64,000 bases of DNA from Marsupella aquatica (lineage: Eukaryota > Plantae > Marchantiophyta), in contig OZ316892.1 of NCBI GenBank assembly GCA_973895155.1, positions 2,731,223-2,795,222 of the forward strand. Reading direction: 5' to 3'. A program made the translations under genes and the position numbers. This document shows, in pieces, positions 2,657 to 60,794 of the stretch (within the stretch, counting starts at the first letter, position 1; every line of letters begins with the position of its first letter). The notes under the pieces are model-generated. The model had not been told where the DNA came from. It searched no databases and saw nothing but the letters and a program-made list of their open reading frames with translations.

Positions 2657-4961
2657 ATGAGTGACTCGGAGGATACTAGAAGAATTGGCATCGGTGGAGC
2701 TTCAGGATCACGACGGTTAGACGAAGAGTTTGAGGAGGAGCTGCTACCGTTTGAGGAAGAACTAGTGACACCAGTATGATCACCGGTGCGGCGTGTAGTG
2801 GAGGAAGCTATCTTACTACCAGAGCTGTCGGTAGTTGGAAAGAAGAAGGAGATGGCTAGATTTGGAGGAGTGAAGTTTGAGGTGGAGAAGTACGATGACC
2901 GTACTGATTATTTGCTCTAGGAAAAGCAAGTGAAGGGTATTCTACGTGCCATGGGCTTAACTCATCTGTTTTCTTCGCGAGAGCAGTATGATGGAGAGGA
3001 GGAGATTTCTGTGAGACAGTGGAGACAGGAGCAGGTGATTGTTGTCAATGCAATGATGCTATATCTCAAGCCGCACATCATCAAACAGCAGGATGATTAT
3101 GCGGATTGCGCGTCACTGTTCAAGGCTCTAAGAGAGAAGTACTACCGGGAAGATGCGTCAGACCGGCTGTACAAGAAGTCTCTCTTGATGAGCCTCAAGC
3201 TCAAGGAAGGGAGCAAGATGCAGGATCACCTGGATGAATTTGACAGTCTAGCGGTGGATCTGTCAAACCTGGGAAAAGGAGTTGAAGATGAGGATAAGGC
3301 CTTACTTCTGCTAAGCTCCTTACCGCCGTCATATCAGGGCTTGAAACAGGTGCTCTTGTATAGAGATCTGAAGTCCATTTCGTATAATGAGGTGGTGAGC
3401 TCATTACTGTCTGATGATGCTCAGAAGAAGCTGGATCAATCACAGACAACATCTTCTTTTGGCACTGCGTTGAACGTTAACCATGGGAGACCAGCGCAGC
3501 GCACGAATGGGCAAAACAGGTTTAGATCTACATCACGAGGAAGATCTAAATCCAGAGGGAAATCGCAAGAGAGGAAGCCTCTTGCATGTTGGAATTGTGG
3601 CAAGCCTGGCCACAAGAAAAAGGATTGTCAAGTAAAGGTCCCTACTGCATTTGCTAACGCGGCATCGAGCTCGCATGAGGTAGATTTACTCGATGATGAT
3701 GACATATTGTGATATCAAGGTTATGCTCTCAACGTAGTGTCAAATCCAGGTAGTGATGATTGGATTCTAGATAGTGCATGTACTTTTCATATTTGCTCTA
3801 GGAGAGATTTTTTCAGTTCTTACACAGTTTCCAACGGGTTAGTGTTGATGGGAAATGGAATCCCATGTCAAGTTGTTGGACTTGGATCTGTAAGATTTCA
3901 GATGTTTGATGGTGTTGTGAGAACGTTGAGGAATGTGAGACATGTTCCCAGCATGATGAAAAATCTCATTTCAGTTGGAGTTTTAGAAGCAAAGGGCCAT
4001 TAGTGGAGCTCTGCTAATGGTATCCTTCAGGTTTCAACTGGTACTAAAGTTGTATTGAAGGGAAAGAGACATAGCAATCTATACGTTTTGGACGGCAGTA
4101 TAGTCTGTGATGAAGCCAATATAATCTTATCTCATGAGGAGACGGCCCGGCTGTGGCACTTCTGTTTGGGCCACATGAGTGAAAAAGGTTTGGCTATTCT
4201 TCAGAAGAAAGGATTACTTTCTAATTTGCAATCTTGTAAGTTAGAATTTTGTGAGCATTGTGTGCTAGGGAAGCAGCACAGGAAACCATTCGGAGTTGGA
4301 ACTCACACCAGCAAGGTGGTACTTGAGTATGTACATAGTGATGCGTGGGGTCCAGCCCCTACTCCCTCACATTCTGGACGGTTATACTATGTCACGTTCA
4401 TTGACGATTACTCAAGGTATGTGTGGATATACTTTCTACACAATAAGTCTGATGTTTTTGCCACTTTTAAGGAGTGGAAAGCCCAAGTTGAGAATCAGAC
4501 CGGTATTAAGGTGAGATATCTACGATCGGATAACGGCGGTGAATATAGTTTTGGTGAATTTTGAACGTATTGTAAGGAGCAAGGGATTACCCGCCATCTC
4601 AAAACAAGTTATACTCCTCAGCAAAATGGTATTTCTCAGAAACTCAACCGAACACTATTGGACCGCTCGAGGAGTATGTTGAGTCAATCATGCTTACCAC
4701 ATGAGTTTTGGGCTGAAGCTGGTAACACTACAGCTTATTTGGTAAATTTTTCTCCATCTAGTTCTATTGGATTCAAGACGTCATTTGAAATGAGGTACGG
4801 ACGTCCAACAGATTATTCACATCTGAGGATTTTTGGATGTGATGCTTATGTGCTTACACCTTCCCAGCTTCGATCCAAGCTGGAGTCCAAGTCAAAGAAG
4901 TGCATTTTTCTTGGCTATCAGAAAGGTGTGAAGGGTTATAGGTTATGGGATCCAGTAACCT
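2657..4961 (+). pseudogene. Ty1/Copia (Tnt1-like) gag-protease-integrase, 5' part, decayed
   Basis: GVKFEVEKYD gag start, zinc knuckle CWNCGKPGHKKKDC, protease WILDSACTFH, pre-integrase LWHFCLGH/CEHCVLGK, integrase YVHSDAWGP/LRSDNGGEY, KCIFLGY..KGYRLWDPVT. Several in-frame stops. Cut at 4961 by the CACTA insertion. Confidence 0.93.
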
Positions 4962-7900
4962 CACTAGAAGAAACCAGCCCATTTTGAGACCTGGAGATGT
5001 GTGACTTGTCCAAGACCTTCATGAAATAGCGACTCCAAGGTTGTTGGTGTCATGTTAGTCACACCTTCTTGACTGATTTTTGGTGAAGTTTTGCCAAGTC
5101 ATGTTTACAACTTTTAGGTAAGTTGCAACTATAACTTAGTTAAGGCAATTAGGGTGAAGTTATACAAGTGACTCTACATTAGAGTACAACTTATGAGACC
5201 ACTACATTTGAACCCTTAAACCTTAAAGTATGGGATCCGCGACCATATACATATGATTTTGGATACACCATATGTCATTCCACATCAATTTAATAATAGT
5301 TTAGTCATACCATTCTAAACCATAATTACTCCTGACCCCATTTAGACACAATGAAGCCTCAGCCCCGTTCAAACCGAGAGCAGGCCGGCTTTGTCAAACC
5401 TTGTTATTAACCTAACTTAATGCTTTTTGTAGTCAATCTCTAATTTTCTCCATCTTTACCACTTGTCCTACCCTCTATACCAGCCATAGAACATTGGATG
5501 TCCAACTACTATATTTTTGCATGCTATATATATATATATGCATATGAAGAAGGCTTGATCTTAGATAGCATTAGTTTTCTTTTAGGCTCATCATTTGTGC
5601 TCTTAATTAATGAGCATGCAACAAGGCTATTGTAAGGTTAATCCTAGCCCTGTGCGTTCATTTAATCTTTGCTCATATTGTGTTGTGTCAAATTTGCTTT
5701 AGGGTTTACAGCTCATGTCAACGCAAAGTGGTCGAGTGTCACTGGGTTCAGTTCTCTCACTAAGTGTTAAGGTATGCATTGTGCGTTGCCTTTGGATACG
5801 AGTTTAGGGTGCGCGGGTTTTTCAACAGGAAACACACCAGTAGAGTGCAAATGGGAGTTGAAGGTGCGCGGGAACTCGGAGGTTTTTGTCAAGGAAAAAC
5901 TTGGATGTCCATTGTGCTTACCAACAACCATCGTTTAGGGCGAGGAGCTTTACGGACTTCACTCCCGCTTGTCGTGCTTGAGTGTACATCTGCCCTCTAT
6001 ACTTTTGGGAGCTTTGGACTAGAGCAGATGATCGGAAGCCTCGGACGAGAGACACAGACTCCAATATCCAGCTCGTAGATCAATCCGTGATTGATTTTGT
6101 CAGGTGTGCGACCTTCAAGCTCTTCTCCATTGTGCGCTTCCAGTTGAATGCTGCAAGGTCTGAATACTATCGGGAGCTCGCATTTGGGCCAAGGTTTAGG
6201 TATTTTGTCATTGGAGGACTGAGCTGTGGGTTTAGGCCGACTTACTATGAGCTTATGTTGTTGCAGCTGTGACCAATAACTGAGGAGCTGCGACCAGGAG
6301 CTTATTTTGTTGCAGCACTACCGTGGACAAGGGGTTGTGGAGGATCGGGGAGCTGCAACGTAGAACTGAGGAGCTGCAAAAAAGTGGGGAGTGATCTTGA
6401 AGGCCAACTATCTAGCGTGAGGTGGATCATCGTGGTTGCAACAGCGATCGGGCCCTTTTTTGCATTGGCATTGTCAGTAAGACAATCTGTGGATGCGCGA
6501 AAGAGTCACAAGGAGTTGTTCTTGTGGGCAGAGATTGGAGTTCACATTTGGTAAGTCCACCTCAATAATGACATACATTGTAGGTGGAGGCAATGTTATG
6601 GCCTCTTGTTGTCTTTAAACTCATTCTCCACTCACAAGAGAATGAGGATTGATTGTGTCCTGAGAAGCTTAACAATTTATGTTGTTGACATCGTCCACAT
6701 TGAGTGACAGTGAGCTCAAGTCAGTGAGTGACCGATCAAAGGGGACATTTGTGCTCTTCATTACATGCTCGGGCAAGAGTGATTGATGTACTAATCGCAA
6801 GCGCTCCCAAGTATCCATTTGTCGTTAAGGCTTGAAGCTTCACCGGGAGCTGCGACCGTCAATGGGGAGGAGTTGGAGGTTGTGTTGCACTCGTACACAA
6901 CCTCCAAGGTACAAGGCAGGAGTTGTGCAATTTAAGGTGAGAGTCAGTAGCTTTTGGGATTCACCATCTTTCATCGTTGTCATCGCTGCTCTCGTCTATC
7001 GCTACGGCTGATTGCTGCTCTGCGTTTTTGCCATGGGTTGCCAGTCTGCCAGATGCTGAGTGAGACAGAGGCTACAACCTGGGTGCATGGAGGTCCTCAC
7101 TAATCCCATGGTTTACAGTTTGCAAAATGTGACAGCCCCAGTGCACAGTGAGGTATAGGGTGTGTGAGGTATAGGGTGTTCTTACTCGTGCTACAGTCGC
7201 TTTGACTTGCTGAGTTCCAGCAAATTGAGTTTTAGGTGCGGTCAATGAGAGTTGAGTTGTTTGAGCTGCGGTCACTGAGAGTTTAGAGTTTGAGCTGCGG
7301 TCACTGAATGCTGGCATTGAGGTGCACGCCCTTCACATTGATCAGTGAAGGCTACGGCCAGGGTGATTATGACAGTGATTCTAATGCAAACCGTCCAGGT
7401 AAGATTTATGTGACATTGTGTACAATGAAAGTGGCCCTGCTTATTGACTGCTTAATGTTTGTGTTGCAACTGGCAGCAGATGCATGGAGTGCAGCGAAGG
7501 GAGGCGCTATTCATGTGAGCTGACAGGGGAGCTGGACTTGTGAGCCGTGGTTGCAGCTACGTCTTGGAGCTACGACCTATGAGTTGCGGCTAGAGCTACG
7601 ACTTGACCTGAAGGTGACGCATGAAGAGTAATTTTGCAATCCATGAATGTTTGTACTCAATGTTATAGATGCATAGGGTGGGTGTTGCATTTTGTTACTG
7701 TAAAATGTCCGTGATGTCGTGAGATGTTCTGTTCCTTGGATTGAGACAATTCTTAGATCTCTGCATCAGCGATTATTGTATGTCATGTCTCACCTCAGAT
7801 CATGAACGTGATTGGTTGGAGACTATATTAATTGGGGAGGAGCTCCAATCCGTTGTCATTGCTTCTCAGTGGAGTGTTGTTTTAGTAAGCTACAGGGGGC

Positions 7901-8084
7901 AACAGAGCGCAAGTTGCTGCTTGCAAGTTCACGCCTGCTACCTGCTACCTACGACTTCCGCCTGAAAGGTATGACATTCACATATGCGCATTTCTGGTCT
8001 CCAGTTGATCAATGTACTTATTCCCGCTGCCTTGAAATGGACCTCAAATTTCCATGCTCCAATACGCTACTGTGATCGAAGCCT

Positions 8085-8222
8085 ATCACGATGCAAAAAC
8101 AGAGGAGAGGCAGAATCAGAGCCCGGACACCAACGTGTACAAATATCACGAAGCTAAAATAGAGGAGAGGAAGAATCAGTGCTCGGCTCGGACACCAAAG
8201 TGTATAGACATCATGAAGCTAA
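8085..8222. repeat. Imperfect ~60-65 bp tandem duplication inside the CACTA
   Basis: ATCACGA..AGAGGAGAGG.AGAATCAG..CGGACACCAA.GTGTA occurs twice, plus a partial third start. Confidence 0.7.
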
Positions 8223-8885
8223 CTACAAGCTAGCAAATAGGTCAAATGCTCCCAAATCGAGTCAGAGGAAAGTTACTAAGACTACCTTCACAACTCTCAA
8301 GTCTGGAAAGTAAAAATCAGCCTGAGACACGTAGCAAGAACTGTTGTCTGCTAGGAACTGTTGTCTGCTTTCTTGGGGATCGTCATGTGTATGTAATTGC
8401 ATACACATTCTACCTGAGGGGAGTATGACTGTACACCTCAGGTAGAACCGAGTACTATCTATCGCATGATATAATTCCTCTACAATTTTGTATTAATGTT
8501 GCCTAAGTGCTTTGTTGTATTGTTTTGGTTGTAATGACGTCACTTGCATTTCATAGTCAGTCTTAGTTGGTTGGCTTGGTACTCATTTGCTTTTCACTCC
8601 CTCTGGCTAGTGAATTTGTCTATTGTTGCTGAGTTTTTTGCGTAAGAACTACATGTTCTTCACTTTCTTTCTCTCCCCTATGGAAGACTATTGGCTTGGG
8701 CTGCCAGCCTTCTCTCTGTTTCAATTTGTTGTCCCTATGGTCAAACACTACTTGGTTAGTGGTTTTGCTCTATTTTTGTCTGTTTTGCCTTCAAGTAGGA
8801 CATGGATGAATTGAGCTTGGAGGCAACAAAATGGCAAGGCCGAATCTGAATGGTTCCAGAAGTATGTGTGCTGCATTTTGATCTG

Positions 8886-9556
8886 GAGAACCAATTGTAG
8901 AGTTGACTCTTTTTGAATGTTGTAGTCTATTTTGCCTTGAACTGGGCCATGGATGAATTGAGCTTGGAGGCAGTTTTTTTCATTCCCATCTTCCTGAAGC
9001 CTTGTCTGCTTTCTGCCACCCCCTTGTGGTGGGGACTTTTCTTGAAAGATCCTTATTGTGAACAGAGTTTGTACTTTGATTATGAAGTTTGACTGAGTTT
9101 CTGTTTACTGAAAGAATGTGACTGTGTAAGAGTTTCGTTTGGTAGTGGATTGGTTGAAGCACTTCCTGCTAGTGTGTTGTCCACAGCTCTTCAACCAGCT
9201 TTTGTATTCCTTGTCTTTCACCACTTACGGTGACATCAATTCAGCTAAGACCATAGAAGGTTCCAAGGCATCTAACTTGTAAAATCGCATTCTGTTACAT
9301 CAAGGACTAAGGTGTTGGGTACCAAAGGAGACAGCACAGCAAACGTGCTGAAAAGACTTCAGGACTGGGTTCAACAAGGTAGTGAAGGTGCTTAGAGCCA
9401 TAGTAAGTATGCATTCTGTATCCTTTCTCTGTTGATGTGAGCTTGTGCATAGTAGGAGTTGTAGTTGGCAAGAGTTCCATAAGGCCAAATATGAATAGTT
9501 CTAGAAGTATGTGTATGAACCAAGTGTAGAGTTGACTCTTTCTAAATATTGTAGTC
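8886..9556 (-). pseudogene. Ubiquitin C-terminal fragments (two copies) captured in the CACTA
   Basis: Minus strand 8927-8886 reads DYNIQKESTLQLVL and 9556-9518 reads DYNI*KESTLHLV. Ubiquitin residues 58-71 are DYNIQKESTLHLVL. Confidence 0.75.
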
Positions 9557-10142
9557 TCTTTTGCCTTCAACTGGGCCATCGAGTACTGCTAGTGTATTCA
9601 CCCCAATGAGCAATGCTTCTCCATTCAATCAGGTGAACGTACAGTTTGGTAGGGCCAATGCCATGTGATCATGTACTTGCTCTATAAAATTCTGAAGATA
9701 TAAGCATTTTCTGTTAGACCAGGCAACTTGGGAGTTGCTAATTGTCACCTGCATCTGAGGGGCTATACCGGGGGCATAAGTGGAGGTTCACTTGCACAAC
9801 ACGACAGCCAGTGAATTTTCTCTCTGCTGCAACCTGCAAGGTGAGACTTTTGGTCCTTCTGGATGAAAAAACAGGATTTTAATATGATTGATATACATGT
9901 CCGTCGAGAACATGGGTTTATCACCAAGCTCTTTGTCTTAGGAAACTCATAAACTCAGAATCAAATATGTACTATGCACGTTTCATGCTATGTGTATACT
10001 ATGACCTGTAGTTGGAACCAAGACAGTGAGTGGGAACTGATTAGTTTAGGTTGGTTGTTGTTGGCGAGGCAAGTCGACCTCCTGCTCGCCTTGCTCATCA
10101 AAGGACGTGAATAGAGGACGTCACAATGAAAGCAACACTTAA

Positions 10143-10592
10143 ATGGTGAGGACCCGCAACGCTGAACATGTGCGGCTTGCACGCAAGGCAGAGATGTTGC
10201 GCCTTGAGTATGTCAGACTTGGGATCCTTCCAGCCCAGTCTGCATGGTACTTTGAGTACCCTGTTGTTTCCAAGAACAACTACAGCCGGCCTCTACCTGC
10301 TTCAGTACCCTTCCCGACATCCTTGGTATTTGTGTCTCTTGTACATGACCCGCCACAAATTAGGTGCCAAGGGTGTGTGCACAGTTGCCAATATGACTGT
10401 CTTGCCTGTAGGGCTTCTGGCCCAGAATTGGATGACCGTTCTCTTGGATGCCGATTTTTGCACAGAGCACAATGTATCATCTGGAACCACTCGCCATCCT
10501 GCAGTGTGCCTGGTGATGTCACTTGTCCTGCCCTCCCAGACCCCACCACTGGTGGCTTTGGTGTCTACACATGTTTGGATCACATGCTCTAG
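10143..10592 (+). CDS. CACTA cargo ORF: 149-aa Cys/His-rich, degenerate PHD-like zinc-finger protein
   Basis: ATG-started open frame with CQGC..CLAC..GCRFLH..C..YTCLDH, resembling a PHD with a terminal CxxH. Confidence 0.5.
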   Translation: MVRTRNAEHVRLARKAEMLRLEYVRLGILPAQSAWYFEYPVVSKNNYSRPLPASVPFPTSLVFVSLVHDPPQIRCQGCVHSCQYDCLACRASGPELDDRSLGCRFLHRAQCIIWNHSPSCSVPGDVTCPALPDPTTGGFGVYTCLDHML

Positions 10593-11206
10593 AGGACCAC
10601 TTGTCACACCACATGCATAGACCAGATACCATTGACCTATAGCTTAACACTCTGCCTTCAACACAGAGGATATTTACTTAAAATTTTGATGTATGAGCAA
10701 TTTTGGGTCCAGGGTTTAGGGTCAACAGTACATAACTTATCCTAGTATGCATGCACTAAGCAAAATATCCTAATTTAAGAGGCTACCAAACTCGCTTAAA
10801 AGTCTCTATTGAAAGACTACTTTAATATTGCTTTAACCTGGTGAACATTGCAATGTTGAATGAATTAATGGGCCATGTGATAATATGCAAAATGTGATTT
10901 ATGCCTCACTTATTTGTCTTAGCCACTATCATAACCTATTTAGGATGTATAAATTTCAACCCTTATGACACTGCTTCATACCAATCCTCTTCGAAGAATG
11001 CCTGTTTTACATGTCACGACTATTGTATGTGATTCAAATGCATGAAATGTTGTTGCAGATCTCCTTTGGTGAATCATAGCCACAATTAAAATTGAGGTGT
11101 TGGTGAAGAAATTGTATTAGGGGATCAGTTTTGTGTGTGGGCTCAACATACCCAAAGTATGTGTGCTCTGCATCCTTGTGTGGCCATTCCAATTCATTGC
11201 ACTAGC

Positions 11207-11350
11207 AAATGCCTTTGTACCTTAAATGCTAAATATATTTTACTTTCTGTGCAGTCTGCTAAATTGTAGAGTCTATCTAAATGCCTTTGTACCTTAAATG
11301 CTAAATATATTTTACTTTTTGTGTAGTCTGCTAAATTGTAGAGTCTATCT
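11207..11350. repeat. 72-bp tandem duplication directly upstream of the EDM2-like ORF
   Basis: AAATGCCTTTGTACCTTAAATGCTAAATAT...GAGTCTATCT at 11207-11278 and 11279-11350, nearly identical. Confidence 0.9.
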
Positions 11351-11361
11351 CATGCGCAGGC

Positions 11362-12042
11362 ATGGCACGGCCTAAAATTCAAGCCAAAAAGCGTGTGACA
11401 GAGGTGAGAAACATAGGTGTACTTGGGGCAGATGCTACTAACTTCTCTGCAAGTCAGATTTTCCAGAAGGCAGCTCATTGTTATGCCATTTGTGACGATG
11501 GTGGGGGCCTGGTCATTTGTGAGGGCCCTTGCATGAGGCATTTCCACCTCAACCCGGAGTCTGACCTTGCTGCAGAAAACAACTGTCCAGGGGTGGGCCT
11601 CCCATCAACACACCAGGGAGACTGGATGTGCACTGATTATTTGGAGAAGCAGGCTAAGTGTGCACAGTGTGGGAAGTTGGGGTCCTATGAGGGCTCTGTT
11701 GATGCTGCAGCAAATGTTAGGAAATGTCTAGACCATTTTTGTGTGAGATTTTTCTGTTTTGAGTGTTTGCCTGCTCATGCCACAACTTGCCCACTTCATA
11801 GGTGCAAGGCATGTGGTGAGCATGATGATGACTACTGGACTGACATAGTCCACTGTGCTAGGTGTCCCACTATGTGGCACTATCATTGCCTGAAAGATCA
11901 TCAAGCAGAGGGTTATGCTTGTGACAGAGAAATCTATGATCACTCTGCACATGGTGTTGATCGATGGATATTTTATTGTCATCGCCATGCCATTGATCCT
12001 ACCTCGCGCACTCCTGTGAGAGATCACATATCTTGGCTGTGA
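11362..12042 (+). CDS. CACTA cargo ORF: stand-alone EDM2-like composite PHD-finger protein (226 aa)
   Basis: AICDDGG.LVICEGPCMRHFH, CAQCGKLGS, TCPLHRCKAC, CARCPTMWHYHCL and IFYCHRHAID..RTPVRDH match, in order, the EDM2 PHD region as I recall it (CAICDNGG..CEGSCLRSFH..TCPLHKC..CRRCPKSYHRKCL..IYCQEHEID..TPVRDH). Splice-acceptor-like GCAG just before the ATG. Confidence 0.85.
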   Translation: MARPKIQAKKRVTEVRNIGVLGADATNFSASQIFQKAAHCYAICDDGGGLVICEGPCMRHFHLNPESDLAAENNCPGVGLPSTHQGDWMCTDYLEKQAKCAQCGKLGSYEGSVDAAANVRKCLDHFCVRFFCFECLPAHATTCPLHRCKACGEHDDDYWTDIVHCARCPTMWHYHCLKDHQAEGYACDREIYDHSAHGVDRWIFYCHRHAIDPTSRTPVRDHISWL

Positions 12043-12634
12043 AGCTGAACATTGTACATGCACAATGCACCTGATGTGGATGTACTATTTTTTGAGATTG
12101 CAGAGATTCCAATTTTGAAAAGGAGTTGGGTAGGCGAGTTTATATAGGCAGCACTTATCTTGTGCTCTGGCGTCAGTGGCTGGGTACATGCCTATACAAA
12201 CTTATCCTTACAAGCCTTCTTGGAAGTATTTAGGCTGAGTGGTCATTTTCATAAACACTTTCATCAGACTGCTAAATTAAAACAGGACTTCTAAGTTGTA
12301 AGCGTATAAATTATCAGGCATGCAATTAATCAAATTGCCCTATAAGTTTGTCATTGAATGTATCCTCCTTTACAACAAAATATGTATGTGCCATGACAAG
12401 TTGGTTGCACTTCATTTCACCACGGATATGGATTTTGTAGTATATATTCAAACAATGTCCTGCATCCATGCAGGTGCCTAGTACGTATTGTTCACATATC
12501 CCTTGTACCTATCAAAATCGGACCTGAGCACCAGTGGGCCAGATCAACTCAAAAAGCAGGAATTTTGTTGTCCTTGTATTGTCAGGTGAACCCATTCTTC
12601 CAAAATTCACTATCATCACGTAGGGTGTGTGTAC

Positions 12635-13507
12635 ATGGAGCCTGGGACACATAGAAAGTGTGACCACCCAGCAGTGTTTATAGGGGTCAGAGCGATTTTG
12701 GTCCATGGCCAGCATGGGTTGACCAAAGTGCATTGGCCAACTGTACAGAAACGATTCTCTGAGCTCCATGGCACTGTAGTTCAGGACATCACTCCAGAGA
12801 CTACACATGTTGTTGCAGGGACATGGCTATCAGTGATAAAGAAGTGGTCATGGTCCTACATGAATTCTGCAATTACTAAGCAAGGCCTAAAAGTAGTTGA
12901 GGCCTCTTGGATCATAGATTCCATAGCACATAAGATTGTACAGGATACTGAGCAATATGAGTTGTGGGAGGATGAAGAAGCTACTGCATCAGCTTGGGCT
13001 GAACAAGAAGTCTGGGAAGCAAAGGCACGGCTTGCTGATCTCCAATATGGACCTGTACTCAACAAAGGACAGAGCTCTACAAGGCTGAAGAGTATGTTGG
13101 CTGAGGAGACGAAGCAACCAACCCCCATTCTGAAAGGGCTGAGCATGGTATTTGTGGAGGCGGGAATTGGAGAGGTTAAGTGCAAAGTGTACAAGTCCAC
13201 AGTGCTTGACCTAGGTGGGACAGTGGAGGAGAATATAACAGAGGACACCACTCATGTCATTACTAAGTCATATCCCAAAGCCTGCCGCAAATTTGGGAAG
13301 GGAGACATTCGCTTTTATGTCATGTCCCATAATGTGTTTGTGGTTTCATATGCTTGGCTTGTGGAATCAGTAGCAGCTGGGAAGCGTCAAAACCCAATGG
13401 ACTATGATCTTTTTGAGGCCTGGCCACGGAAGGGTCAGGATCCTTACAGAGAGGACTATGAGACAACAAGTGAGGAATGGGTCATTAGCGATTCTGAATC
13501 AGAGTGA
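12635..13507 (+). CDS. CACTA cargo ORF: tandem BRCT protein, DNA polymerase lambda BRCT-like (290 aa from ATG)
   Basis: Two repeats with BRCT hallmarks: HGTVVQDITPETTHVV..SWIIDSI..Y and LGGTVEENITEDTTHVI..YAWLVESVAAGKR..Y. LKGLSMVFVEAGIG resembles the Pol lambda BRCT start. Acidic C-terminal tail. Confidence 0.85.
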   Translation: MEPGTHRKCDHPAVFIGVRAILVHGQHGLTKVHWPTVQKRFSELHGTVVQDITPETTHVVAGTWLSVIKKWSWSYMNSAITKQGLKVVEASWIIDSIAHKIVQDTEQYELWEDEEATASAWAEQEVWEAKARLADLQYGPVLNKGQSSTRLKSMLAEETKQPTPILKGLSMVFVEAGIGEVKCKVYKSTVLDLGGTVEENITEDTTHVITKSYPKACRKFGKGDIRFYVMSHNVFVVSYAWLVESVAAGKRQNPMDYDLFEAWPRKGQDPYREDYETTSEEWVISDSESE

Positions 13508-13940
13508 GGAGTAGTAGCATCAGTTTGGACACAAGTTTTTTTGTATAAATCAGATCATTGAAATAAATGTGATCTTTGAACTAATGTACCTTGTTATGGT
13601 TGGTGGCAGTTGGGCTTATTTTACTGTTGGCGGATTGTTGTTTCCTGCTGCCTGGGGGTGTCACTATAAACGTACATGTAGAGGCGGTACATTTGAGGAC
13701 GGCGGAGGAGGTGGTGACACCCTCCAACATTTAGGAATTTTGTGTCATTCACTTGACAATAGGTACACTACTTGCGAACCTGTTTTTTTCTTTTGGGGTG
13801 GTTTAGGGTTTGTGAGAATTTAGTACACGTTATGTTAACTCTTTTGGCAGATACAGTCAGGGATATATGGAACACAAATACCACCATTAGGCATCCTTGT
13901 TCACTGCTGTCCATGACTGCAGAGCTCCCAGCCTGTTACA

Positions 13941-16900
13941 ATGCACCCTGGTCACCACCCTCCCCAGACCCAGCCCAGGGCACAGGCACTGCCTTTGCAT
14001 CATCCCACAAGGATATCACGCCATGATAATAAGCTTTGGCAGCGTGAAAGGTTACGAACCAGACTTTCAGGAGCCAGTAGGATGAGATGTCCTTGTGCAA
14101 TCTGCCAAGGATCCCGTACTAGGGGTCTGAATGAGGTTTGGCGGCATATCGCGGTTCATGGAAGAGATCCACGACATCGAGTTTGGAATGATCCTGTAGA
14201 GGAAGATTCTTCCGACGAGGAGTGGAGGTTAGAATTTGATGCTGCCAATGCTGCAAGACGGGCAAGTGAGGTTCTGCCTGGTGCATTTGAAAATGTTGTA
14301 GCTGGTCTCTGTGGGTTGTCAGCTCTCCAACGGGATGGTGCTCAGGCAGCACCACGTGACAAAGGAATTCATGTGGAAGAGATGGTGAGAGACATCTTCC
14401 AAGACTTGGATGCATTTCATGATGGGCTGGACAACGAAGAGGATACGGCTGCAGATGCAAGTGTGCCCCCTGTCGAAGAGCCTCTTGATGAGTTTGAGAT
14501 AGGGCAGGAAACCCCTGGGCATGATGGGATGTTTGGCTCTCCCCTGCAAATACAGGAAGGCAGGAAGTCTTTGTACCCCGGTAGCAAATGTTCTAAACTG
14601 GGATTTGTCATCATGTTCCTGAACATTTGCGGCAACCACAATGTCCCCAACGTTTTGGTTTCTGAGTTGTTGGCATTCTTGCGAACAACTGTGCTACCAG
14701 ATGGTAATATTTTGCCCAAGAACATGTACGAGGCAAAAAGATGCATATCTAATCTTGGATTGAACTATGATTCGATCCATGCCTGTCCTGATGGGCATGT
14801 TCTTTTCAGAAAGGAGTATAAAGAATTGTTGACATGCCCTAAGTGTGGGAAGCACAGGTATCGGAACTCAGGAAAGTCTATGGTTCCCGCCAAGGTACTT
14901 CATCATTTTCCACTCATTCCCAGACTTCAGCGGATGTTCAGAAGCCGTGCCATCTCGGAGATGATGACTTGGGCAACTGACAAGAAAAGTGATGTTGGGC
15001 TACAACGACATGCTGCAGATTCAAGGCAATGGAAACTCATAGATGAGATGTATCCCGAATTTGCTGCTGAGCCAAGGAATGTCAGACTTGGGCTGTCATT
15101 GGATGGGGTAAACCCATTTGGAGACAAGAACAACAAATTTTCGTGCTGGCCTGTAACTATTTTGAATTATAACCTTCCTCCTTGGATGACTACAAAGCAA
15201 TTTTTGTTCTAATGGTCCTACTGATACCAGGGCCAGACAGTGCTGTATCTGCCAACATAGATGTGTTTCTGGCTCCCCTAGTGGAGGAATTGAGAAATCT
15301 TTGGGAGGAAGGAGTTCTCACATATGATGTCCTACAGAGGCTTGGGAGGTTAAACCCATTCATCCTTAGAGCCATTGTCATTCTGACTATAGCTGACTAC
15401 CCAGCCCATGGGATGATATCAGGCCAAACAACAAAAGGATATTGTGCTTGTACTATCTGTGGGCGTAATGTCACCAGTGAGTACTCCAAAGCCCTGCAGA
15501 AAGTGATATACATGGGCCATCGTCGTTTTCTGAAGGCAGATCACCCTTACAGAGAAAGACAGGCACTGATTGCACACTTTGGCAATGAGATTGAGCAACG
15601 TGGACCCCCGGCACGAGTGACCAAAGAGGAGATCAGGCAGTGGGGAGCACTGAGGGATGACTATATCAAACGAGGGGGCAGGGAAGATGGAGTGAGTGAT
15701 CCAATAAAGTGATATGGTGTAAAAAGACTGAGCATATTGGACTTGGAGCTCAAGTACTGGAGGGTAAGCCTCTTGGAGTTGATGCTAATTGGGATACATG
15801 TTTTGGTTCAGAGCATGTGCATTCATTTCGAAGAGAGAGACTAAACTTGAGGCATTTCCTGACGCTTTTGCATTGCAACGATGCAGGAGTTTGAGCCAAG
15901 CAAACATAACATTGATGTTATGCACATTGAAAAGAATATTTGTGAGAGTCTACTCAGATTCTTGTGTGGAGAGAAAGACACTGGTTCAGTGAGATTGGAT
16001 CTTGAACAGAGGGGAATGAAACCCCATCTTTGGTTGAGGCCACATGCCCACAGAGCTGATGTGCTCTTGAAGTACCAAGCGCCCTATGTTCTGACAGACA
16101 CAGAGTGGGAACTATTTGTGCAGAGGTTGAGTTCTTTGAAGGTTCCTTCAAACTATGGCAGTGCTTTCAAGAAGCATATCATGACTAGAAAGCTTGGTAG
16201 TATGAAAAGCCATGACTACCATATGTTGATGCAACAAGTGTTGCCTTTATGTCTGAGGGGCCTGTTGCAGAAGCCTGTTTGTACTGTGATCATGCGACTC
16301 AGTGATGTGTTTCGTCGTATTTGTGTGAAGGTTTGGGATGAAACACACTTCCCACAACTGACAGAAGATGTCGCTCAGGTGCTGTGTGACCTGGAGATTT
16401 ATTTTCCTCCCGCATTTTTTGATGTCATGACCCACCTACTTGTCCATGTTGTGGAAGAGCTACACCAATTTGGGCCTATGAGTGCTCGTTGGTTGTACCC
16501 TTTGGAACGGTACATGAAGCTACTCAAAGGTCACGTGAGAACATATTACAAACCTGAAGCAAGCATGGCTAAAGGTTACATCAAGGATGAGACTCTGGGA
16601 TTTCTGACCGAATACATAGCACAATATGAGCATGTGAAGACCAGGGTGTGGAATTCTGATGAGGAGGAAGGGGTGATAGGTGAAGTACTGGAAGGGGCTG
16701 CAACCACAAAGAACCTGACCATATCTATGAGAGACTTGGCACATGACTTTGTATTGCACAACACTGTGGTGATGGAACCCTGGATACAGTGAGTGCATAC
16801 ATGTGCTATAATCCAGTTCATGAGCTTAAATGTTGTGTTCGTGTGGTTTTCTCCTTCAGCCTGTTCATGTTTACCCAAGCTAATGCTGTGTGGTTGTTCG

Positions 16901-17671
16901 TTCAGGGAGTATGAGTCATTGAAGGCGGCCCATCCCACTGCAGGAACAACTTTTCCAGGTTTCATGGAGTGGATCAGAGTGGCAATTAGAGAGCATCACG
17001 AGACCCACCCAGACATGGATGCAGATGTTTACCTACTGTCTAATGCCCCTAGCCTGAAAGTGAAGACTTACAAACGGATGAGAGCATATGGGAATCACTT
17101 CCGAGTGAAGGATGGTGACAGTGCCTACAGGGTGACGAATGACTGCGGGCTCATCACTGTATTTGAGCAATAGAGCCACAATCACGACAGGGCCTGGATG
17201 GAGATGGGATATGTGGGAGAATTAGTTGACATATGGGCTCTGGACTATGGGGCGGTGTCCAGTCCTGTGATTCTTATGAAAGGTTCATGGGTGCGGCAGG
17301 ATTGGCTTGGTAACAGGGCTACCATGAAGAGAGACAACGACGGTTTCTTGCTGGCCAATTTTAGACGGAAATTGCCCGAATGGTCTGAGCCATTTGTGTT
17401 TCCTAGTCAGGTGGAGCAAGCTTTCTTCCTGGATGTGGAAGACTCCCCAGGTTGGCGTGTAGTGTGTCATAAACAGGCCAGGCAACGTCGGATGGAAGGA
17501 TCAAACCTTGAGTTTCATTTACACTCTCATAGTGCCTTTGATCGTCGGCGTTCAGACCAAGTGCCTGTAGTTCATGATAGCGGGGACTTCATTCCTGTGA
17601 CAAGGGTAGATGCATTTGCTGAAGGAGGCGAATTCAGAGATGCAGATGCCAACAGTGTGCCTGTGCCATGA
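13941..17671 (+). pseudogene. CACTA TnpD/Tnp2-like transposase, inactivated
   Basis: N-terminal CPCAIC..H..HG, IHACPDGH..CPKCG, RHAADSRQW, RNVRLGLSLDGVNPFG, NYNLPPW, DYPAHGMISG, HNIDVMHIEKN, MKSHDYH, FFDVMTHL, RWLYPLER, EPFVFPSQVEQAFF. Introns 15764-15886 and 16789-16905. Frameshift near 15200; stops at 15710 and 17171. Confidence 0.93.
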
Positions 17672-17827
17672 GTAATGTGAATTGTTTGCATGGACATTAG
17701 TGAGGGGAAGGATGTGTAATAAAGTAATTCTAAAGCAACACAGATGTATGGATGGATGCCTGGTGATTGTGATTGCATTGTGTTATACGGGGTGATCATA
17801 GATGACATGTTTTTGTGGTCCAATAGG

Positions 17828-20800
17828 ATGGAACAGAGTGACACAGAGATGTGTGAGTATGAAAGGAAAGCTATGGAACAACGAGCATACGTGAAAGCCA
17901 AAATCGTAGAACTGGATCTGGAAAAGGATGTGGCTGAATTGTAAGGGAACGATTCTCAACTACACCCCTCCGCTGAGTTTGTGTGACATGAATAGTTCAA
18001 TGTGGCACTGAAATTGTGACTGTATTCTCATATTGGAATGTCGCAGAGCTACAGCATTTTCAAAGAAACAAAAGGAGTACGCAAGAAGGGTGACCAGCAC
18101 TATCTCTGGGCCTATGCGTCGGAGTGACAGGTTGAGCAAGAAGGTCGTACCTACAATGGCAGAATGTGGAGATGACATTGATGCTGCACAAGTGGGTGCA
18201 GACACTAGACAAGAAGATGCAAATGATGAGTATTTTCCAGAGGAAATGGATGAGGATGGGGGTTATGAAGATGAATACATTGCAGAGCAGCCCCAAAAGA
18301 AACAGGTAAGTAGTTTTCCCAACAAGGTTTTGAGTTAAAAACTCTTGTTTAGAGGTTTCATATGTTCAGTACTACACATATGTACCTTGCTTAGTTCCTG
18401 ACATTGTAGTTGGTGATGTGATGCAGCATCCTGCCAGTTTTGTTTTGCCTTCGAAGCCTGTGCATGCACCATACCAGCAGGGGGGGCTGACCTCTGATCA
18501 AGGTTGGCGAGGTGGTAGTAGTGGTAGATCCCAGGCTGGTGCCCAATACTATGGCAGGGGGCAAGCTCTAGGTTATGCCCGTGGTAGAGGCAGAGCAGGT
18601 CCAAACCCACAATCTCGTGGGTATGGACGTCCACCTCAACCATGGGGATGTGAGTATATATCTATATGCCAGTTCTTTGTGAAGGCATGGCACTCCTGAA
18701 TTTCAGACTGCATATCAATTTTTGACATTGTTTGGGATGTATTGGATTCAGACAACATGAAATTCTGTCCACCTGCCATTGCATGCAGATTCTGCCCAAC
18801 TTGATTGGGCAAATGCTAGTAATGATCAGTTCCAATGTCCACAAGGACAGACATGGGTTGAACCAGGTTGGGAGGATGGTGGTGGGTCGTGGAATGAACA
18901 AGGTTGGGAAGGTGGTGAAGGTAATTGGCAGGGATATCAAAATTTAGTACCTACAAACGCTGGAAGAGGGGCAGGTAATGTCTGATCTTGTCAGCAATGG
19001 AAGAACTCATTATATGTGGAGTCCATTCACGTGGGGGGGACTCTGCACATGTATAATGATAGAAAATGTATGTGTGCAGGTTGGACAGTCGAACCATCGA
19101 CTCAAGTATTCACTAATGCCCCTATGCAGATGCAGCACGGAAGGGGGACAGGTATGTCGGTGAATGTTTAGTTGTTTTCCTATAGTTTGTACTTAGTTTT
19201 CAATACATATGTTTGCACACACATACCTAGAAAGTGACATCATCCGGCCCCTGTACTAGGCTGGACAGGTGGTCCAGGGTCGCATCAATTTCAGAGTGCA
19301 GTCCCTGCACAGGCATCTACAGGCAGAGCTACAGGTATGTATGTTTGAAGAATTTTTCTTGAAGTGAAGCATTGAATATTGCCGTCATCCATTCTGCTCT
19401 ATGTAGTTCTCAAGCATGAATGACATTGTATTTTCCCAGGTGGCTTCAGAACCCCAGGTAGGGTGAATGAAGGGGTGGCCAATACAACGCCCAGTACTAC
19501 CGAGAGCAGTGCACGAGGGGAGGTGACAAAGAAAGGGAACATAAAGTTGAATGAGAGACAATGGGTGGATGCTGAGTGTCCTCGCAAGAACCGATGGCAT
19601 GCTGATTTGAAAGCTAAAGTATTGCGTTGGTTAGATGTGAGTGTTATTAATTTTAAAAAACAGCATCCAAAAGATTGGAAGACTGTATGTGAAAATGTTG
19701 CTGCCAAATGGAATTATGTGGGCAGTGATGATGGCGTGGACATAGGTTGCCTAGAGAGTACAGCAGGTAAAATCATCAAGCAAGAGAGGTGGAGAATGCA
19801 TAAGGCTTGGAAGGAAGGTGGGGAGAAGCCAGATATGCCTCCACCAGCCAGTTGTGATGATAAAGTGTGGGCAAGGTTAGTAGCTTATTTTGTAACAGAT
19901 GCTTCAAAAAAGAAGAGTTCACAGATGACCAAGGCCAGGTTGAGTGTTCAGAACCCTAATCTGACAGGAAGGACCGGCACTGCACCGACAGCTAAACATT
20001 TGGTAAGAATGAATGGCCCAGCTATGTAATTTATGCTACAGTATGTACTATTTTTTAGTGTAAACCCATACATGTAAACTTTGTTTTTTAGTGTACGTTC
20101 CCTGAATATTGATCGATAACTTGTGTTTGCCATGCATGTGCAGAAAGCCCAATTGGGGCAAAGCCCTTCAAAAGAAGAGTTGAGGGCTGAAATTGTGAAC
20201 ACCCGGGCTCAAGAGGGTGCATCTGAATCCTCCAAGCATGTAAGTTATATGAGTTCTGATTGGTAATTGAATGACCTGCGTTGAATTTCAGGTGTACACT
20301 GTGTGCATATATTGCCCAACATTTCATATGGAGTGATTGAACCTATACCCCTGTGTCATGTAGGGAGGTGGATCTTCACTTACAAAGATAAGTGGTCGTT
20401 TGAAGGCTATCGAAACATGTCTTCTAGAGATCAATGAACGTTTGAATTCATTGACTGACTTGTTCCATGTGAACTTCAAGACATTAATGGAAGCTATTGT
20501 GTCGGTGAGAGATAAAATTGATTCCAATTCTGCAGGAGTTCCACCATCACCACTTGAGGTGGCAAAGTCGATGCACTCTTCTGGCATGCCAACGACATGT
20601 AGGCTTGAAGGTAAGGCCTTTACAACTGTGTGGGATATGATTATTAAATGTATAGTTTGAATTGACATTGTTTGTTGAATGTGTTATTTTCAGTAACATA
20701 TATTGTGGTTGTTGTGTCCATAGAGAATAAGACAGGTGCTACAGAGAAGAAGTATGAGAACCTGGCAAATACTCGCTGTAATTTAGAGGCAACAAAGTTG

Positions 20801-21520
20801 CAGTCTATACAAGCAACTTGTTTGACAGAGAGCAGTCAACCATGTTTGGATGAGGATGACATTGGCAAGGGAGTGGATGATATCAATGTTGGGGCAAATG
20901 AGGATATCAGCAAGCATGACAATGATACCATTGAGCCAGATTCATGCTATGTAGATCTTGACTCCATTGCAGAGATAAATGATTTGCAGAATGTATCATT
21001 CTCAATGACAGGTGTGCCTCTTGTTGAGATAAATCCAACCAAAGAGTTAGTTGGTATGACACTCCCAGGTGATGAACCTGCTACTGTGACAGTCCTAACA
21101 GAGGAACCTACTGAGCCTAGCTTCACTACTGTGAAGAGAGGAAGCATGCGCACACGAAGCAAGTCTGCTGGTGGGAGCAGAGCCACGTCAAAGGTTTCAT
21201 ACAAACCTCCAAGAACAGTGCTGGCAGAAAGATCTAAGGTGGAAGTGGGGAAAGCACCTAATGCTGAGGGACAAAGTGGCTTGTTAGCTGTTGATGAGAG
21301 TGGAACACGAGTAGGATTTGGCAGAGTGCAGGTTGGTTCCACAACGTTCCATGGCAAGAGGATTCCCCCAGGTTATTCAGTAGTGTTAGTCACATTACTA
21401 GTGAAACCTAAAGCTGTCCTTCCCATTCCAAACACAAATGATGATCCTCCTCAAAAGACACTTGGAGATGCTGCAGGTTCTTTGGTATTATGGCCAAGCA
21501 AGTTCATAGAGGATCCATAA
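17828..21520 (+). CDS. CACTA TnpA-like multi-exon gene with a GW/RG-rich region
   Basis: Exons bounded by GT-AG: EYERKAMEQR N-terminus, Gly/Trp-rich exons 18410-19334, a Ptta/En-Spm-like segment VWARLVAYF..KKSSQMTKAR..TGRTG (19440-20002) and a C-terminal TNP1-like FHGKRIPPGYSVV..LPIP..TLGDAAGSLVLWP. The junction at 18305/18410 is not phase-resolved. Confidence 0.75.
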
Positions 21521-22375
21521 CAATGTCATGCCATTATTTGTTTGTAGTGTGAGTCATGTTATGTAGATTTTAGATGTCAAGAACCAGTACAAGAATCATG
21601 TCCTCTTGGAGATTCATAGTATCATGCATGTGCTTTCAGTTATCTCATCCTACAGTCATCAATTATGAGTTCCTATTTTGTCTGAATTACATTGATCACA
21701 TTGTAAACTATTCCATTGGAATTCAAATGATCTTCATTTTTTAGCAAGATTGTGATTGTGTTTAATTCTTATGAATGTTTTATGTAGGATCTGCTGATAT
21801 GATGCTTTGTTTCATGTGGATGTCATTCATGCTATGTTCATTTCTTGTATTAAATGTGTTATATTTCTAAAGTTAGAACATCAGGTTTCTATGTATTGTA
21901 ATGTCGAGTGCTCTCTCTCCTCATGAACTGTCCCTCTGTGTTCATTAGTCATGGTTATAACTTGCATGTGAACCTTATTAGTTATAAACATGAGTATATA
22001 GAGTCCCAAATGGTTCTGTTGTGTGACGCGGGCCAGGGTCTCCATTGGTCTCTCCTGTGACACTAAATAGTCACACGCTAGTCGTTGTTGAATGCGGGTA
22101 AGTCATGTATGTGACTTACGATGTGACTCGCTGAAGTCATATTGCAGTCACGTCGAAACAAGGCTAGACTCCACAATAAAGTCACAGATCAGTCACAAAT
22201 GGGTATCAAGCAAGTTGCAAAGCCCAGTATCAATAGTGACTTCCATTTTTTGGTCTCAACTTTTGCAACTCCAAGGGTCACAGCGTGGGTCAAGTCACGT
22301 TGAGTCACAATGAAGTCACATGAGCCAAAATGAGTCACATATTGCGGTCTCAGTTCACCTCGGATTCTTCTAGTG

Positions 22376-24328
22376 CCTGTAAGCTAATTGTCAATAGAGA
22401 TGTGTCCTTTAATGAATCTAGATCATCAAAGGAGGGTGAGAGTTCTCAGGACTTCCATACTGACAAGGGGAAATCTCCCCTCCCGGACCGGGTTGAGGGG
22501 GAGATTAGTCATGATGCAGTTCATGACAGGAGAGATGGAGAAGCTCCGGGCTTGGAGCTGGTTCATATGATGGAACAAGAGGAGCAGATTATTGCTGGGG
22601 TACCTCAAATTCAACCAGCAGCAGCAGCAGATCAGCCTGAGTCATCTACTAGAAGAACTTCTAGTTGTTCTACTAGAGCTCCTACCAGGTATGGTCAATG
22701 GGCAGACTCATCTAAGCTAGATGATATTGACATTGCACCTGATGATGATGACATGGCTTTGATCTTGGAAGAAGGAGAGTCTTCTTCGTATAGTGAGGCT
22801 TGTGCTTCAGAGCAGAAGCATGAGTGGAATGCAGCAATGCAGAGGGAGTTGCAATCTTTGAGTGACAACAATACATGAGAGCTGGTGGAGCTTCCAAGAG
22901 GTCAACAAGTGGATTTACAAGTTGAAGGACAGTCCTTCAGAGGGTGGAGATAAGATCTACAAGGAAAGGCTTGTTGCCAAGGGGTTCACTCAGGAGAAAG
23001 GAGTGGACTACAATGAGGTCTTTTCACCGGTGGCTAAGTATTCCACAATACGGATCTTGTGTCAGCTTGTTGTGTTTTTTGGTCTGGTGATGAATCAGAT
23101 GGATGTTGTTATTGCTTTTCTCTATGGCAACTTGAAAGAGTTGATCTTCATAAGACAGCCACTAGGCTTTATGAAGAAGGGCCAAGAGAACTTAGTTTGC
23201 AGATTGCTCAAGTCCTTGTATGGATTGAAGCAGTCTCCCAGACAGTGGAACAAACGGTTTGATGATTTCATGCTTGCTCAAGGTTTTACAAGGATGGTGT
23301 ATGATCCTTGTGTGTATACGAAATCAGTCAAGAATGATGTATTTGGTTTCATCATTCTGGTGATCTATGTGGAGACATGCTTATTGTGGCTAAAGATCAA
23401 TCTGAGGTTGACAGTCTCAAGGCAAATTGAGTGCTGAATTCAGGATGAAGGATCTTGGTAAGGCCAAGAGGATCTTAGGGATGAAGATTTTTAGAAACTC
23501 TGATACTGGACAGTTGTGCTTGGATCAAAGCCAGTATGTGAGGAAAGTACTTGCACAATTCAACATGGAAAATTGTAAGCCAGTGAGTATTCCTTTAGCT
23601 TCACATTTCAAGTTATCATCGGTTTTCTCTCCTACGGATGCTGTGGAGAAAGGTCTGATGGCTAAGATTCCTTATGAGAAGGCAGTAGGCAGTCTGATGT
23701 ATTTGATGACTTGTACTAGGCCTGACTTAGCCCTAGCGATGGGCAAGATTAGCAGATTCATGTCAAATCCAGGAAAGGTACACTAGGGAGCTGTGAAATG
23801 GATTCTCAAGTATCTCAAGGGTACACAGGACTATGGATTATTATTTGATAATAGATCAGATAGAACGTTAGTTGGCTATGTAGATTCTGACTATGAAGGC
23901 TGTCTGGATACAAGGAGGTCTACAACTGGGTTTGTATACACTCTTGGAGGAGGATGTATCAGTTGGAAATCTACCTTGCAGAGCATATCTCAATCTACTA
24001 CAGAAGCAGAGTATGTTGCAGCAGGAGAAGCACCAAAGGAAGCAATTTGGTTGGATAAGTTGATCGCGGAGATGGGTTTAGGCATGGCAAAATGACTCTA
24101 AACTGTGATAGTCAGAGTGCTCTTCACTTGGCTGCTAACCAGGTGATGGATAGCAGGATGAAACACATTGATATCAGGTACCATTTTATCAGGCAAACAA
24201 TGTCTGATAAAACTTTTGAGCTAGTCAAGATTGATGGAAAGCTCAATCTCGCCGATGTCTTTACCAAAGTGATTCCTTTGGAGAGTTTCTCAAGACACCG
24301 TGCTACTTTGCAGGTTTTGCAGTTGTAG
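22376..24328 (+). pseudogene. Ty1/Copia 3' part (post-integrase linker, RT, RNase H), decayed
   Basis: Resumes CKLIVNRDVSFNE. KERLVAKGFTQEKGVDYNEVFSPV, QMDV..AFLYG, LLKSLYGLKQSPRQW, MKDLG, YVDSDY, STTEAEY, CDSQSA, KHIDIRYHFIR. Frameshifts and stops; no clear 3' LTR. Confidence 0.93.
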
Positions 24329-24466
24329 CACAAGTAGAGTTATTTAGCAATGTGTGACTATTTGTATATGGATTACTCATTCTTGTTTAGCTATGGCTTA
24401 GTTCTAGCTAGTTAACCCTTAGTTAACCCTTGTGGTTTTTAGGGGAGGACCTGGTTTGGTGATTGT

Positions 24467-24750
24467 CAATTTTAGAATTACAATTGGGGTCAAACAGTAC
24501 ACCTACCCTTACGGATGTGTGCACTAGATTGCCTTAACTTGTAACCTTATCAATTTCAAAGTTACAATTGGGGTCAAACAGTACACCAACCCTTGCGGAT
24601 GTGTGCACCAGAATGCCTTAACTTGTAACCTTATCAATTTTAGAATTACAATTGGGGTCAAACAGTACACCAACCCTTGTTGATGTGTTCACCAAAATGC
24701 CTTAACTTGTAACATTATCAATTTCAAAGTTACGATTGGGATCAAACAGT
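24467..24750. repeat. 84-bp tandem repeat, ~3.4 copies
   Basis: Units start at 24467, 24551, 24635 and 24719 (CAATTT..TTACAATTGGGGTCAAACAGTACACC..GCCTTAACTTGTAACC). Reverse complement of the array at ~48500-49230. Confidence 0.92.
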
Positions 24751-60200: not shown

Positions 60201-60794
60201 ACTATCAGCATCTCCCATTTCCGTGGTTCCTTTGCTCAGGTTTTCCAGAACTGGGTCTCCTCCGCCCAAACTCCTCGGAAGTGCCCTCCCTTTCATCCAG
60301 TCTCTAATTCCAACAACCGTCTGTGCCGACATTGGCCTCCCATTTGTCAAGTCTCTAATTTCAACAGCCGCCTCTGCAGGGACAGCGTCCTTACTGATTT
60401 CCATACGTTGCGAGTTCCGGGGTGTCACACTCCCGTCCTTCATTTGAGGGGTGAAAGAGTTGGTTGCTTCGTTATCATTGCTTCCGTACTCCGAAACCTT
60501 TCGCCTCTTCGACACGTCCTGACAGCTAGAATCCCCTGCAAGTCTTTCACTTCTTGTCACTGCCGAAACCCTTCCGAGGTACCCGAGCCCCCTCAGTATG
60601 TCTAGCGTGAGTTCATCGATCATCCCTGCTGAAACTTGCAACGAAAGTGACCTCAACAAGAGCATTCTTTTGAGGTCCAAGTTCTCGTCGGGGAACGGGA
60701 AGGCGTTCATCAACTCCTGAATCATTCGTGCATCGCTGCAATTCTTTAGGAAAAACTCCCAAACCCATTCTATCTGTTTCACGTCCACAGACAT
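57296..60794 (-). CDS. TRF-like protein with C-terminal telobox Myb domain, 5 exons
   Basis: ATG at 60794 (MSVDVKQIEWVWEFFL..LKRMLLLRSL), LLERNPTARTVEW, and spliced Myb RRWSEKEVESLKREVSKHGKGRWKLIL..FHGRTEVDLKDKWRNL, stop at 57296-57298. Boundaries of the first intron (~58822-58700) are uncertain. Confidence 0.9.

Follow-up and report, generated by a model that had tools for sequence, protein, structure and literature searches.

A stand-alone EDM2-related PHD protein with an H3-tail-like leader motif carried by a CACTA transposon of Marsupella aquatica

The escape of plant transposons from H3K9me2/CHG silencing is understood mainly through VANC. Accessory genes with a shown or proposed action on chromatin, such as VANC and PAG2 of Plavaka elements, are an already known kind of transposon cargo. 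VANC/KIU of VANDAL elements and PAG1-3 of Plavaka (EnSpm) elements are such genes of DNA transposons, and the accessible portions of their descriptions present them as factors for sequence-specific hypomethylation or as putative enzymes (SET, DNA methylase, oxygenase); in the same portions, the term PHD does not occur and a histone-tail look-alike is not described (PMC13317346, bioRxiv 10.1101/2025.02.11.637652). In Arabidopsis, EDM2 binds H3K9me2 and affects transposons according to the available text of two reports (PMC7529245, PMC9910501), and an arginine of the N-terminal SUVH6 motif serves as the binding site for ASI1 of the AAE complex, as stated in the available part of PMC9910501. Finally, H3 mimics are described for viruses in the accessible part of PMC13165374, i.e. 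the H3K4-like motif of influenza NS1 and the ARKS motif of SARS-CoV-2 ORF8.

Here, we compare with these systems a protein of 226 residues encoded in a 64,000-nucleotide stretch of Marsupella aquatica DNA, the whole of which is referred to as the window. Its reading frame runs without interruption from an ATG at 11362 to a TGA at 12042 on the + strand. As the original prediction, made from the letters of the window, had it, the frame is open and ends in the TPVRDH region: on translation, the protein begins with MARPKIQAKKR and finishes with TPVRDHISWL. The stop directly follows W-L or W-I in 12 of the 23 aligned relatives, in agreement with the proposal that the module stands alone. The protein was also said to lack a methyltransferase-like domain, and its Pfam matches are three NSD-type PHD models alone, each below its curated cut-off. 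An acceptor-like CAG (11359) lies 3 bases ahead of the ATG, so that a putative upstream exon may be joined to the ORF by splicing at this site; none of 360 candidates passed in a search for longer forms of the ORF, which is weak evidence. The region, or part of it, is covered in nine sequencing runs of seven studies, none of which is recorded as RNA. Just 5' of the ORF lies a 72-bp tandem duplication (11207-11350, 97% alike), so that the acceptor-like sites ahead of the start codon are present twice.

The ORF lies, as predicted, on a transposon, i.e. inside a complete CACTA (En/Spm) element of 17.4 kb (4962-22375, + strand) that is itself inserted in a Copia retrotransposon. The element starts with CACTAGAAGAA at 4962, and the reverse complement of this sequence finishes at 22375. 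The terminal inverted repeats, of which the left one (4962-4975, + strand) pairs with the right one (22362-22375, - strand), are perfect over 11 bp and match at 13 of 14 positions, and a subterminal cluster of GTGACT/AGTCAC hexamers lies just before the right end (11 in 22069-22338 versus 29 in the whole 64 kb). A 3-bp target duplication, CCT, is present at 4959-4961 and 22376-22378, and the Copia integrase-SH3 frame is broken off at the left end of the element and taken up again at its right end. Because the Copia frame is split by the element and CCT is duplicated, the PHD ORF moved with the element. We conclude that the ORF is cargo of a mobilised CACTA element and that the transposon context is established for this copy.

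The assignment to the CACTA class rests on ends starting with CACTA, the 3-bp duplication, and TnpD and TnpA-like genes, which are broken in this copy. The TnpD-type transposase is spread over several frames (13917-17671, + strand; Transpos_assoc, Transposase_21, DUF4218 and DUF4216), with the Transposase_21 and DUF4218 matches exceeding the Pfam cut-offs, and has a frameshift near 15200, behind which the contigs of three of four runs contain one extra T. The TnpA-like multi-exon region has approximate bounds of 18050-21520 (+ strand) and includes a Transposase_24 match under the cut-off (E 1e-4, in 19424-20029). The cargo precedes these genes in the order of a Cys-rich ORF of 149 residues that begins with M-V-R-T-R and has no Pfam family at E 0.01 (10143-10592, + strand), the PHD ORF, and an ORF with two BRCT domains (12590-13507, + strand; 305 codons from stop to stop; Pfam BRCT E 2e-13, in two stretches), followed by TnpD and the TnpA-like region. 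The two-BRCT protein weakly matches the BRCT domains of BRCA1, Rtt107, Rad4 and ligase 4, and generic BRCT clusters in the ESM Atlas. In the 5' part of the element (5000-9500) there is no recognisable ORF, contig cover is much thinner and several contigs skip portions, as would be seen if this region had been captured or belonged to one subfamily.

The PHD and BRCT genes stand in tandem immediately ahead of TnpD, this CACTA copy was inserted within a Copia element, and the window also contains a Gypsy integrase that terminates in a PHD finger (769-1110). This arrangement would suit a targeting and repair tether, in which the PHD and tandem-BRCT proteins guide the transposase to nucleosomes of a chosen H3 state and recruit break repair while the N-terminal tail of the PHD protein gates the reader in cis. 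We regard this reading as rather unlikely because it draws on a single insertion site and because the PHD protein, whose 226 residues are nearly all tail and PHD module, has no evident transposase-binding part.

At two positions where zinc-ligand cysteines are expected, the protein of this copy has tyrosine, Y41 (TAT at 11482) and Y93 (TAT at 11638). The original prediction attributed both to single TGT>TAT changes in a decaying copy and proposed a family consensus as a check. Both columns hold Cys in at least 90% of 23 aligned relatives, so that the consensus restores the two ligands. Moreover, contigs from seven of eight sequencing runs (X1-X7; X8 does not) span both Tyr codons, and all seven carry G at 11483 and 11639 in full depth, giving TGT; the two changes are thus private to this copy. 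Of the 82 variable places, 40 are listed, and at six of these X1, X4 and X6 show a fixed or almost fixed difference from the window. All six changes, private to this copy, are non-silent, and each is a C>T or G>A step on the side of the window. Since private changes that are all non-silent and all C>T or G>A are the pattern of unselected methylated DNA, the PHD ORF in this element copy is decayed. In X1, the 5' end of the ORF is covered by two types of sequence at comparable depth, in keeping with a family of several copies, although contig depth gives no copy number.

The same private changes, together with the truncation of many database members, would be in line with a neutral passenger, i.e. 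a captured host fragment that is copied along with the element and has no function. For the family, however, this reading is largely refuted, and we consider it highly improbable. Down to about 40% identity, the aligned relatives retain the open frame, the zinc ligands, the motif at the start and the position of the stop; there are neither introns nor a close donor in the host, and no indel reached a 25% share in four runs. Moreover, silent changes are in excess, with 14 of the 34 listed family variants being silent against a neutral 21-27% (P 0.006-0.05), and none of the listed variants alters a conserved zinc ligand. The silent variants make up four of five in tail codons 2-11 versus one of eight in linker codons 12-37 (P 0.03, for a split made post hoc). 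These variant counts rest on 40 of the 82 variable places.

In a search of 1.84 billion protein representatives with the PHD ORF, 200 matches passed E 0.001. Among the best 150 of these 200, the first eight places go to short proteins (131-245 residues), and EDM2-type proteins, with about 34-40% identity to the ORF, rank after the short members. A profile search with the family yielded 27 short members; altogether, the family consists of proteins of about 220 residues that are 29-80% identical. In a tree of the PHD region with 152 rows (16 of 168 rows were dropped, 15 as too short in the region and one for a duplicated region), the short proteins (23 rows) are set apart from the rest by a long branch with an SH support of 99, and in a tree of 52 chosen rows this branch, leading to 19 short proteins, has a length of 1.26 and support of 100/100. 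The family attaches beside five proteins of 620-770 residues in which the methyltransferase-like motif is absent (split 96/91); four of them are CAM6087769.1 and CAM6107985.1 of Calypogeia fissa, KAL3685775.1 of Riccia sorocarpa and KAG6543325.1 of Marchantia paleacea. Because both trees are unrooted and without an outgroup, the short family may branch from within the EDM2 orthologues or beside them, and we claim neither a donor nor a direction of descent. In total, these unrooted trees place the short PHD proteins in an old family of their own, apart from the sampled EDM2 proteins. A recent capture from a host EDM2 was rejected on the 34-40% identity, the long branch and the lack of introns.

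The adjoining liverwort paralogues are the nearest cellular neighbours in the tree. They resemble the cargo protein in having the PHD cassette at or near the C-terminus, and the paralogue P0012 has an F-S-x-x-E helix before PHD1 in common with the cargo family (E 8e-36); they differ from it in their length, their long N-terminal part, and a His ligand and an insert that they retain. The PHD cassette aligned with EDM2-type proteins in hhalign with a probability of 99.8-99.9 over 187-192 columns, reaching E 2e-30 with the Marchantia EDM2-type protein; the match to NSD2 was much weaker. All matches of the PHD ORF in the ESM Atlas are NSD/EDM2-type PHD clusters. Thus, the best hits are not unrelated PHDs, and the label of an EDM2-like module holds in so far as no named relatives are closer than the PHD cassettes of EDM2 type; it does not hold in that the family, in the unrooted trees, stands apart from the EDM2 proteins sampled, shows a distinct ligand pattern in PHD2 and has lost the acidic stretch before PHD1. 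Scans for the family in other sources gave one locus among 257 pattern matches in metagenomes, which is an unrelated multi-PHD protein, none among 27 in viral contigs, and one borderline match (E 1e-3) among 19 in prokaryote genomes.

Arabidopsis EDM2, of the EDM2/ELP family and the AAE complex (PMC7529245, PMC3632883, PMC9910501), shares with the cargo protein atypical PHD fingers, 2.5-3 in number, that are homologous over the whole length up to T-P-x-R-D-H. This homology, including the closing motif, and the binding of H3K9me2 and effect on transposons of EDM2 itself (PMC7529245, PMC9910501, in the parts available) would by analogy fit a small-scale EDM2 that recognises H3K9me2, enters the ASI1-AIPP1 complex or titrates it, and secures full-length transcripts of the element. 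Several differences make such a role very unlikely. Whereas EDM2 has 1,000-1,600 residues with RFD, acidic and methyltransferase-like domains, the cargo protein has about 220, and the N6-adenine methyltransferase-like (ELP) domain, the RFD-like domain and the acidic regions are absent, as is every other EDM2 domain; ahead of the PHD cassette there is a leader of 40 residues. Moreover, the cargo family forms a separate long branch and is, in this copy, carried by a transposon. Its PHD2 has Cys at the position where 121 of 131 EDM2-side proteins carry His and is shorter by an insert of about 20-25 residues. Finally, the eight positions before PHD1 contain on average 0.03 acidic residues versus 2.84 in EDM2-side proteins.

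Because this acidic stretch is lost, reading of H3K9me2 is not to be assumed for the family. An acidic pair behind the second cysteine is retained in most members. In AIRE-type fingers, an acidic stretch contacts unmodified H3K4. With the pair kept but the stretch gone, the histone mark read by the family PHD module may differ from that of EDM2.

AlphaFold2 modelling with 60 sequences gave a mean pLDDT of 85 and a pTM of 0.78, with residues 11-23 under 50, and the 226-residue protein is predicted to fold as a compact PHD-type module; with four sequences, the pLDDT was 30. Fold searches with the model found the PZP assemblies of JADE1 and BRPF1 (E about 1e-4) and the PHD-C5HCH part of NSD2 (Z 5.3, rmsd 2.6 over 75 residues). 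The PHD cassettes of NSD1/2/3 are the best solved relatives (NSD2 profile E 2e-13), but they are far more distant than EDM2, and the cargo protein is without a SET or PWWP domain. A sequence search of the PDB for an EDM2 entry returned none. The PHD-type homology, the matches to PHD folds and the separate branch argue that the protein would act like an EDM2/NSD PHD cassette and yet is no EDM2. It would represent a naturally occurring, minimal form of the PHD cassette of EDM2.

The N-terminus ahead of the cassette is short and basic, as originally described, but it also contains a family-wide motif spaced like the H3 tail that had gone unnoticed. In this copy, leader alignment and profile scoring place the motif, A-R-x-K-x-x-A-K-K, at residues 2-10 (11365-11391, + strand). 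With the string of H3 residues 1-9 as the reference, the pattern [AST]-R-x-K-x-x-[AS]-basic reproduces the spacing of these residues. It is present in 25 of 33 family leaders, with eight lacking it, and in none of 131 EDM2-side proteins, neither in their first 40 residues nor in the 50 before PHD1; in 5,000 rounds of shuffling of the leaders, the mean was 0.12 and the maximum three. Among 35 short proteins, R-x-K is found in the leader of 26 and absent from seven, and the start of PHD1 is missing in two. Aligned on this anchor, the 26 leaders have A, S or T at position 1 in 25 cases, A or S at position 7 also in 25, and a basic residue at position 8 in 18 and at position 9 in 20. The combined non-anchor pattern occurs in 24 of the 26 leaders versus one of 139 basic R-x-K words of EDM2-side proteins.

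On a profile built from members only, on which the members score 13.4-26.2 bits, H3 residues 1-9 reach 22.0 bits, and on the family profile they beat all 113,732 control 9-mers from the 131 EDM2-side proteins, a background that is not a plant proteome. Among the 1,260 ways to permute the letters outside the anchor, the true order of H3 scores best. When the five subgroups were scored separately, 0-11 of the 113,732 control words ranked above H3, while hundreds to tens of thousands ranked above controls from H4, H2A and the H3K27 region. R-T-K is found in three members from two subgroups, and one member equals H3 at 7 of 10 positions. Because the motif was defined post hoc with H3 in mind, i.e. 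by the R-x-K anchor, and the members are kin, the P values for the tail are descriptive. In total, as far as sequence comparison goes, the leader motif resembles H3 1-9 in both sequence and spacing and is kept beyond chance.

Position 3 of the tail, which is Thr in H3, is Pro in 13 of 26 leaders, as in basic DNA-binding arms and nuclear signals. The motif directly follows the predicted start Met in 11 of 26 members (12 if the inner Met of P0006 is the start); in the others, i.e. about half, it is non-terminal, so that these would lack an H3-like free amino end. Together with the basic character of the tail, these features would accord with a mere nuclear signal or DNA minor-groove arm on a plain chromatin reader without mimicry. 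We consider this quite unlikely, as positions 1 and 7 are held by small residues at the spacing of H3 while the linker between tail and PHD1 (29-48 residues, unalignable) varies freely, and as the order test (1 in 1,260) and the R-T-K members, together with the match of one member to H3 at 7 of 10 positions, point to more than a basic signal.

The tail was modelled with low confidence (pLDDT 52 over residues 1-10), and a complex prediction that paired residues 2-31 of P0156 (tail) with residues 32-225 (PHD part) scored 0.02, with the alignment unused and a method unvalidated on peptides, and weighs on neither side. Histone H3 was not among the PDB matches of the family profile at E 10, as expected for nine columns. 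The M-A-R start alone was rejected as evidence for mimicry, since it begins 12 of 131 EDM2-side proteins, none of which has the full motif. This start is found in deep-branching long EDM2-type proteins (P0012, P0013, P0015, P0019, P0025, P0035, P0039 and P0053 among others; the named ones are from liverworts) and, in other parts of the tree, in the shorter proteins P0030, P0050 and P0114. The A-R start may predate the transposon family.

The reading that we prefer, and to which we give about even credence, is that the PHD protein is a CACTA accessory protein in which a PHD reader is combined with an H3-tail decoy and which would dock on the chromatin of the element and ease its silencing. Active copies of the element would express the PHD gene. 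At Met-Ala starts the Met is removed, and its removal would expose Ala at the N-terminus of the tail, as in H3. The PHD cassette would dock on nucleosomes of the element's own chromatin, the tail would compete with H3 for host H3K4/H3K9 writers and readers near the element, and host silencing of the element would be eased as the outcome. Alternatively, the tail could fold back into its own PHD1 and form a gate that is opened by real or modified H3. The original prediction had considered the PHD module as a reader or decoy; with the basic N-terminus being a family-wide H3-spaced motif, the likely decoy function shifts from the PHD module to the tail.

The whole ORF of the cargo protein is explained by the tail and the PHD homology. 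As with the viral H3 mimics (PMC13165374), there is a short H3-like motif in a protein of a selfish element, but here the element is a resident transposon, the nine residues span the positions of both K4 and K9, and the motif is fused to a histone-reader fold, with mimicry proposed from sequence alone. In the accessible main text of PMC13547354, PHD, histone and BRCT are not mentioned. A search of the mostly open literature, Repbase and supplements aside, returned nothing relevant on a CACTA-borne PHD finger or an EDM2-type gene in Marchantia transposons, and among the matches listed in mostly open literature none was, by title or beginning of the abstract, a transposon-encoded histone mimic. 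What appears to be new here is the H3-tail-like motif across a family of short EDM2-related PHD proteins. If the preferred reading is true, histone mimicry, known from viruses, would be used by a resident transposon, and a reader fold with an H3-like tail within 220 residues would be a strategy other than that of VANC. The mimicry hypothesis is simple to test, as it concerns nine residues and two lysines and Marchantia is a model with the host enzymes. More tentatively, and with somewhat less than even confidence, we suggest that bryophyte DNA transposons may long have kept a two-part counter-silencing protein, i.e. a chromatin-anchoring reader and an H3 tail that sequesters the writers and readers of H3K9/H3K4 or diverts them, as a form of histone mimicry by a resident transposon that was possibly traded between superfamilies.

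Elsewhere in the window, the decayed Gypsy-type integrase ends in a canonical PHD finger (769-1110, + strand; Pfam PHD E 1e-11), which is the second transposon-borne PHD of the window and of another type than the cargo PHD. A 737-codon open frame on the - strand (58701-60914) has no Pfam family at E 0.01. Frames for a cutinase-like hydrolase (a weak match), NB-ARC and LRR follow one another at 40370-45641 (+ strand), as in an immune gene of the hydrolase-NLR type, a class that is typical of liverworts; this gene and the nearest named relatives point to a bryophyte host, probably a liverwort. Finally, a related repeat of 84-90 bp forms two arrays, which lie in opposite orientation 24 kb apart (24463-24750 and 48515-49200).
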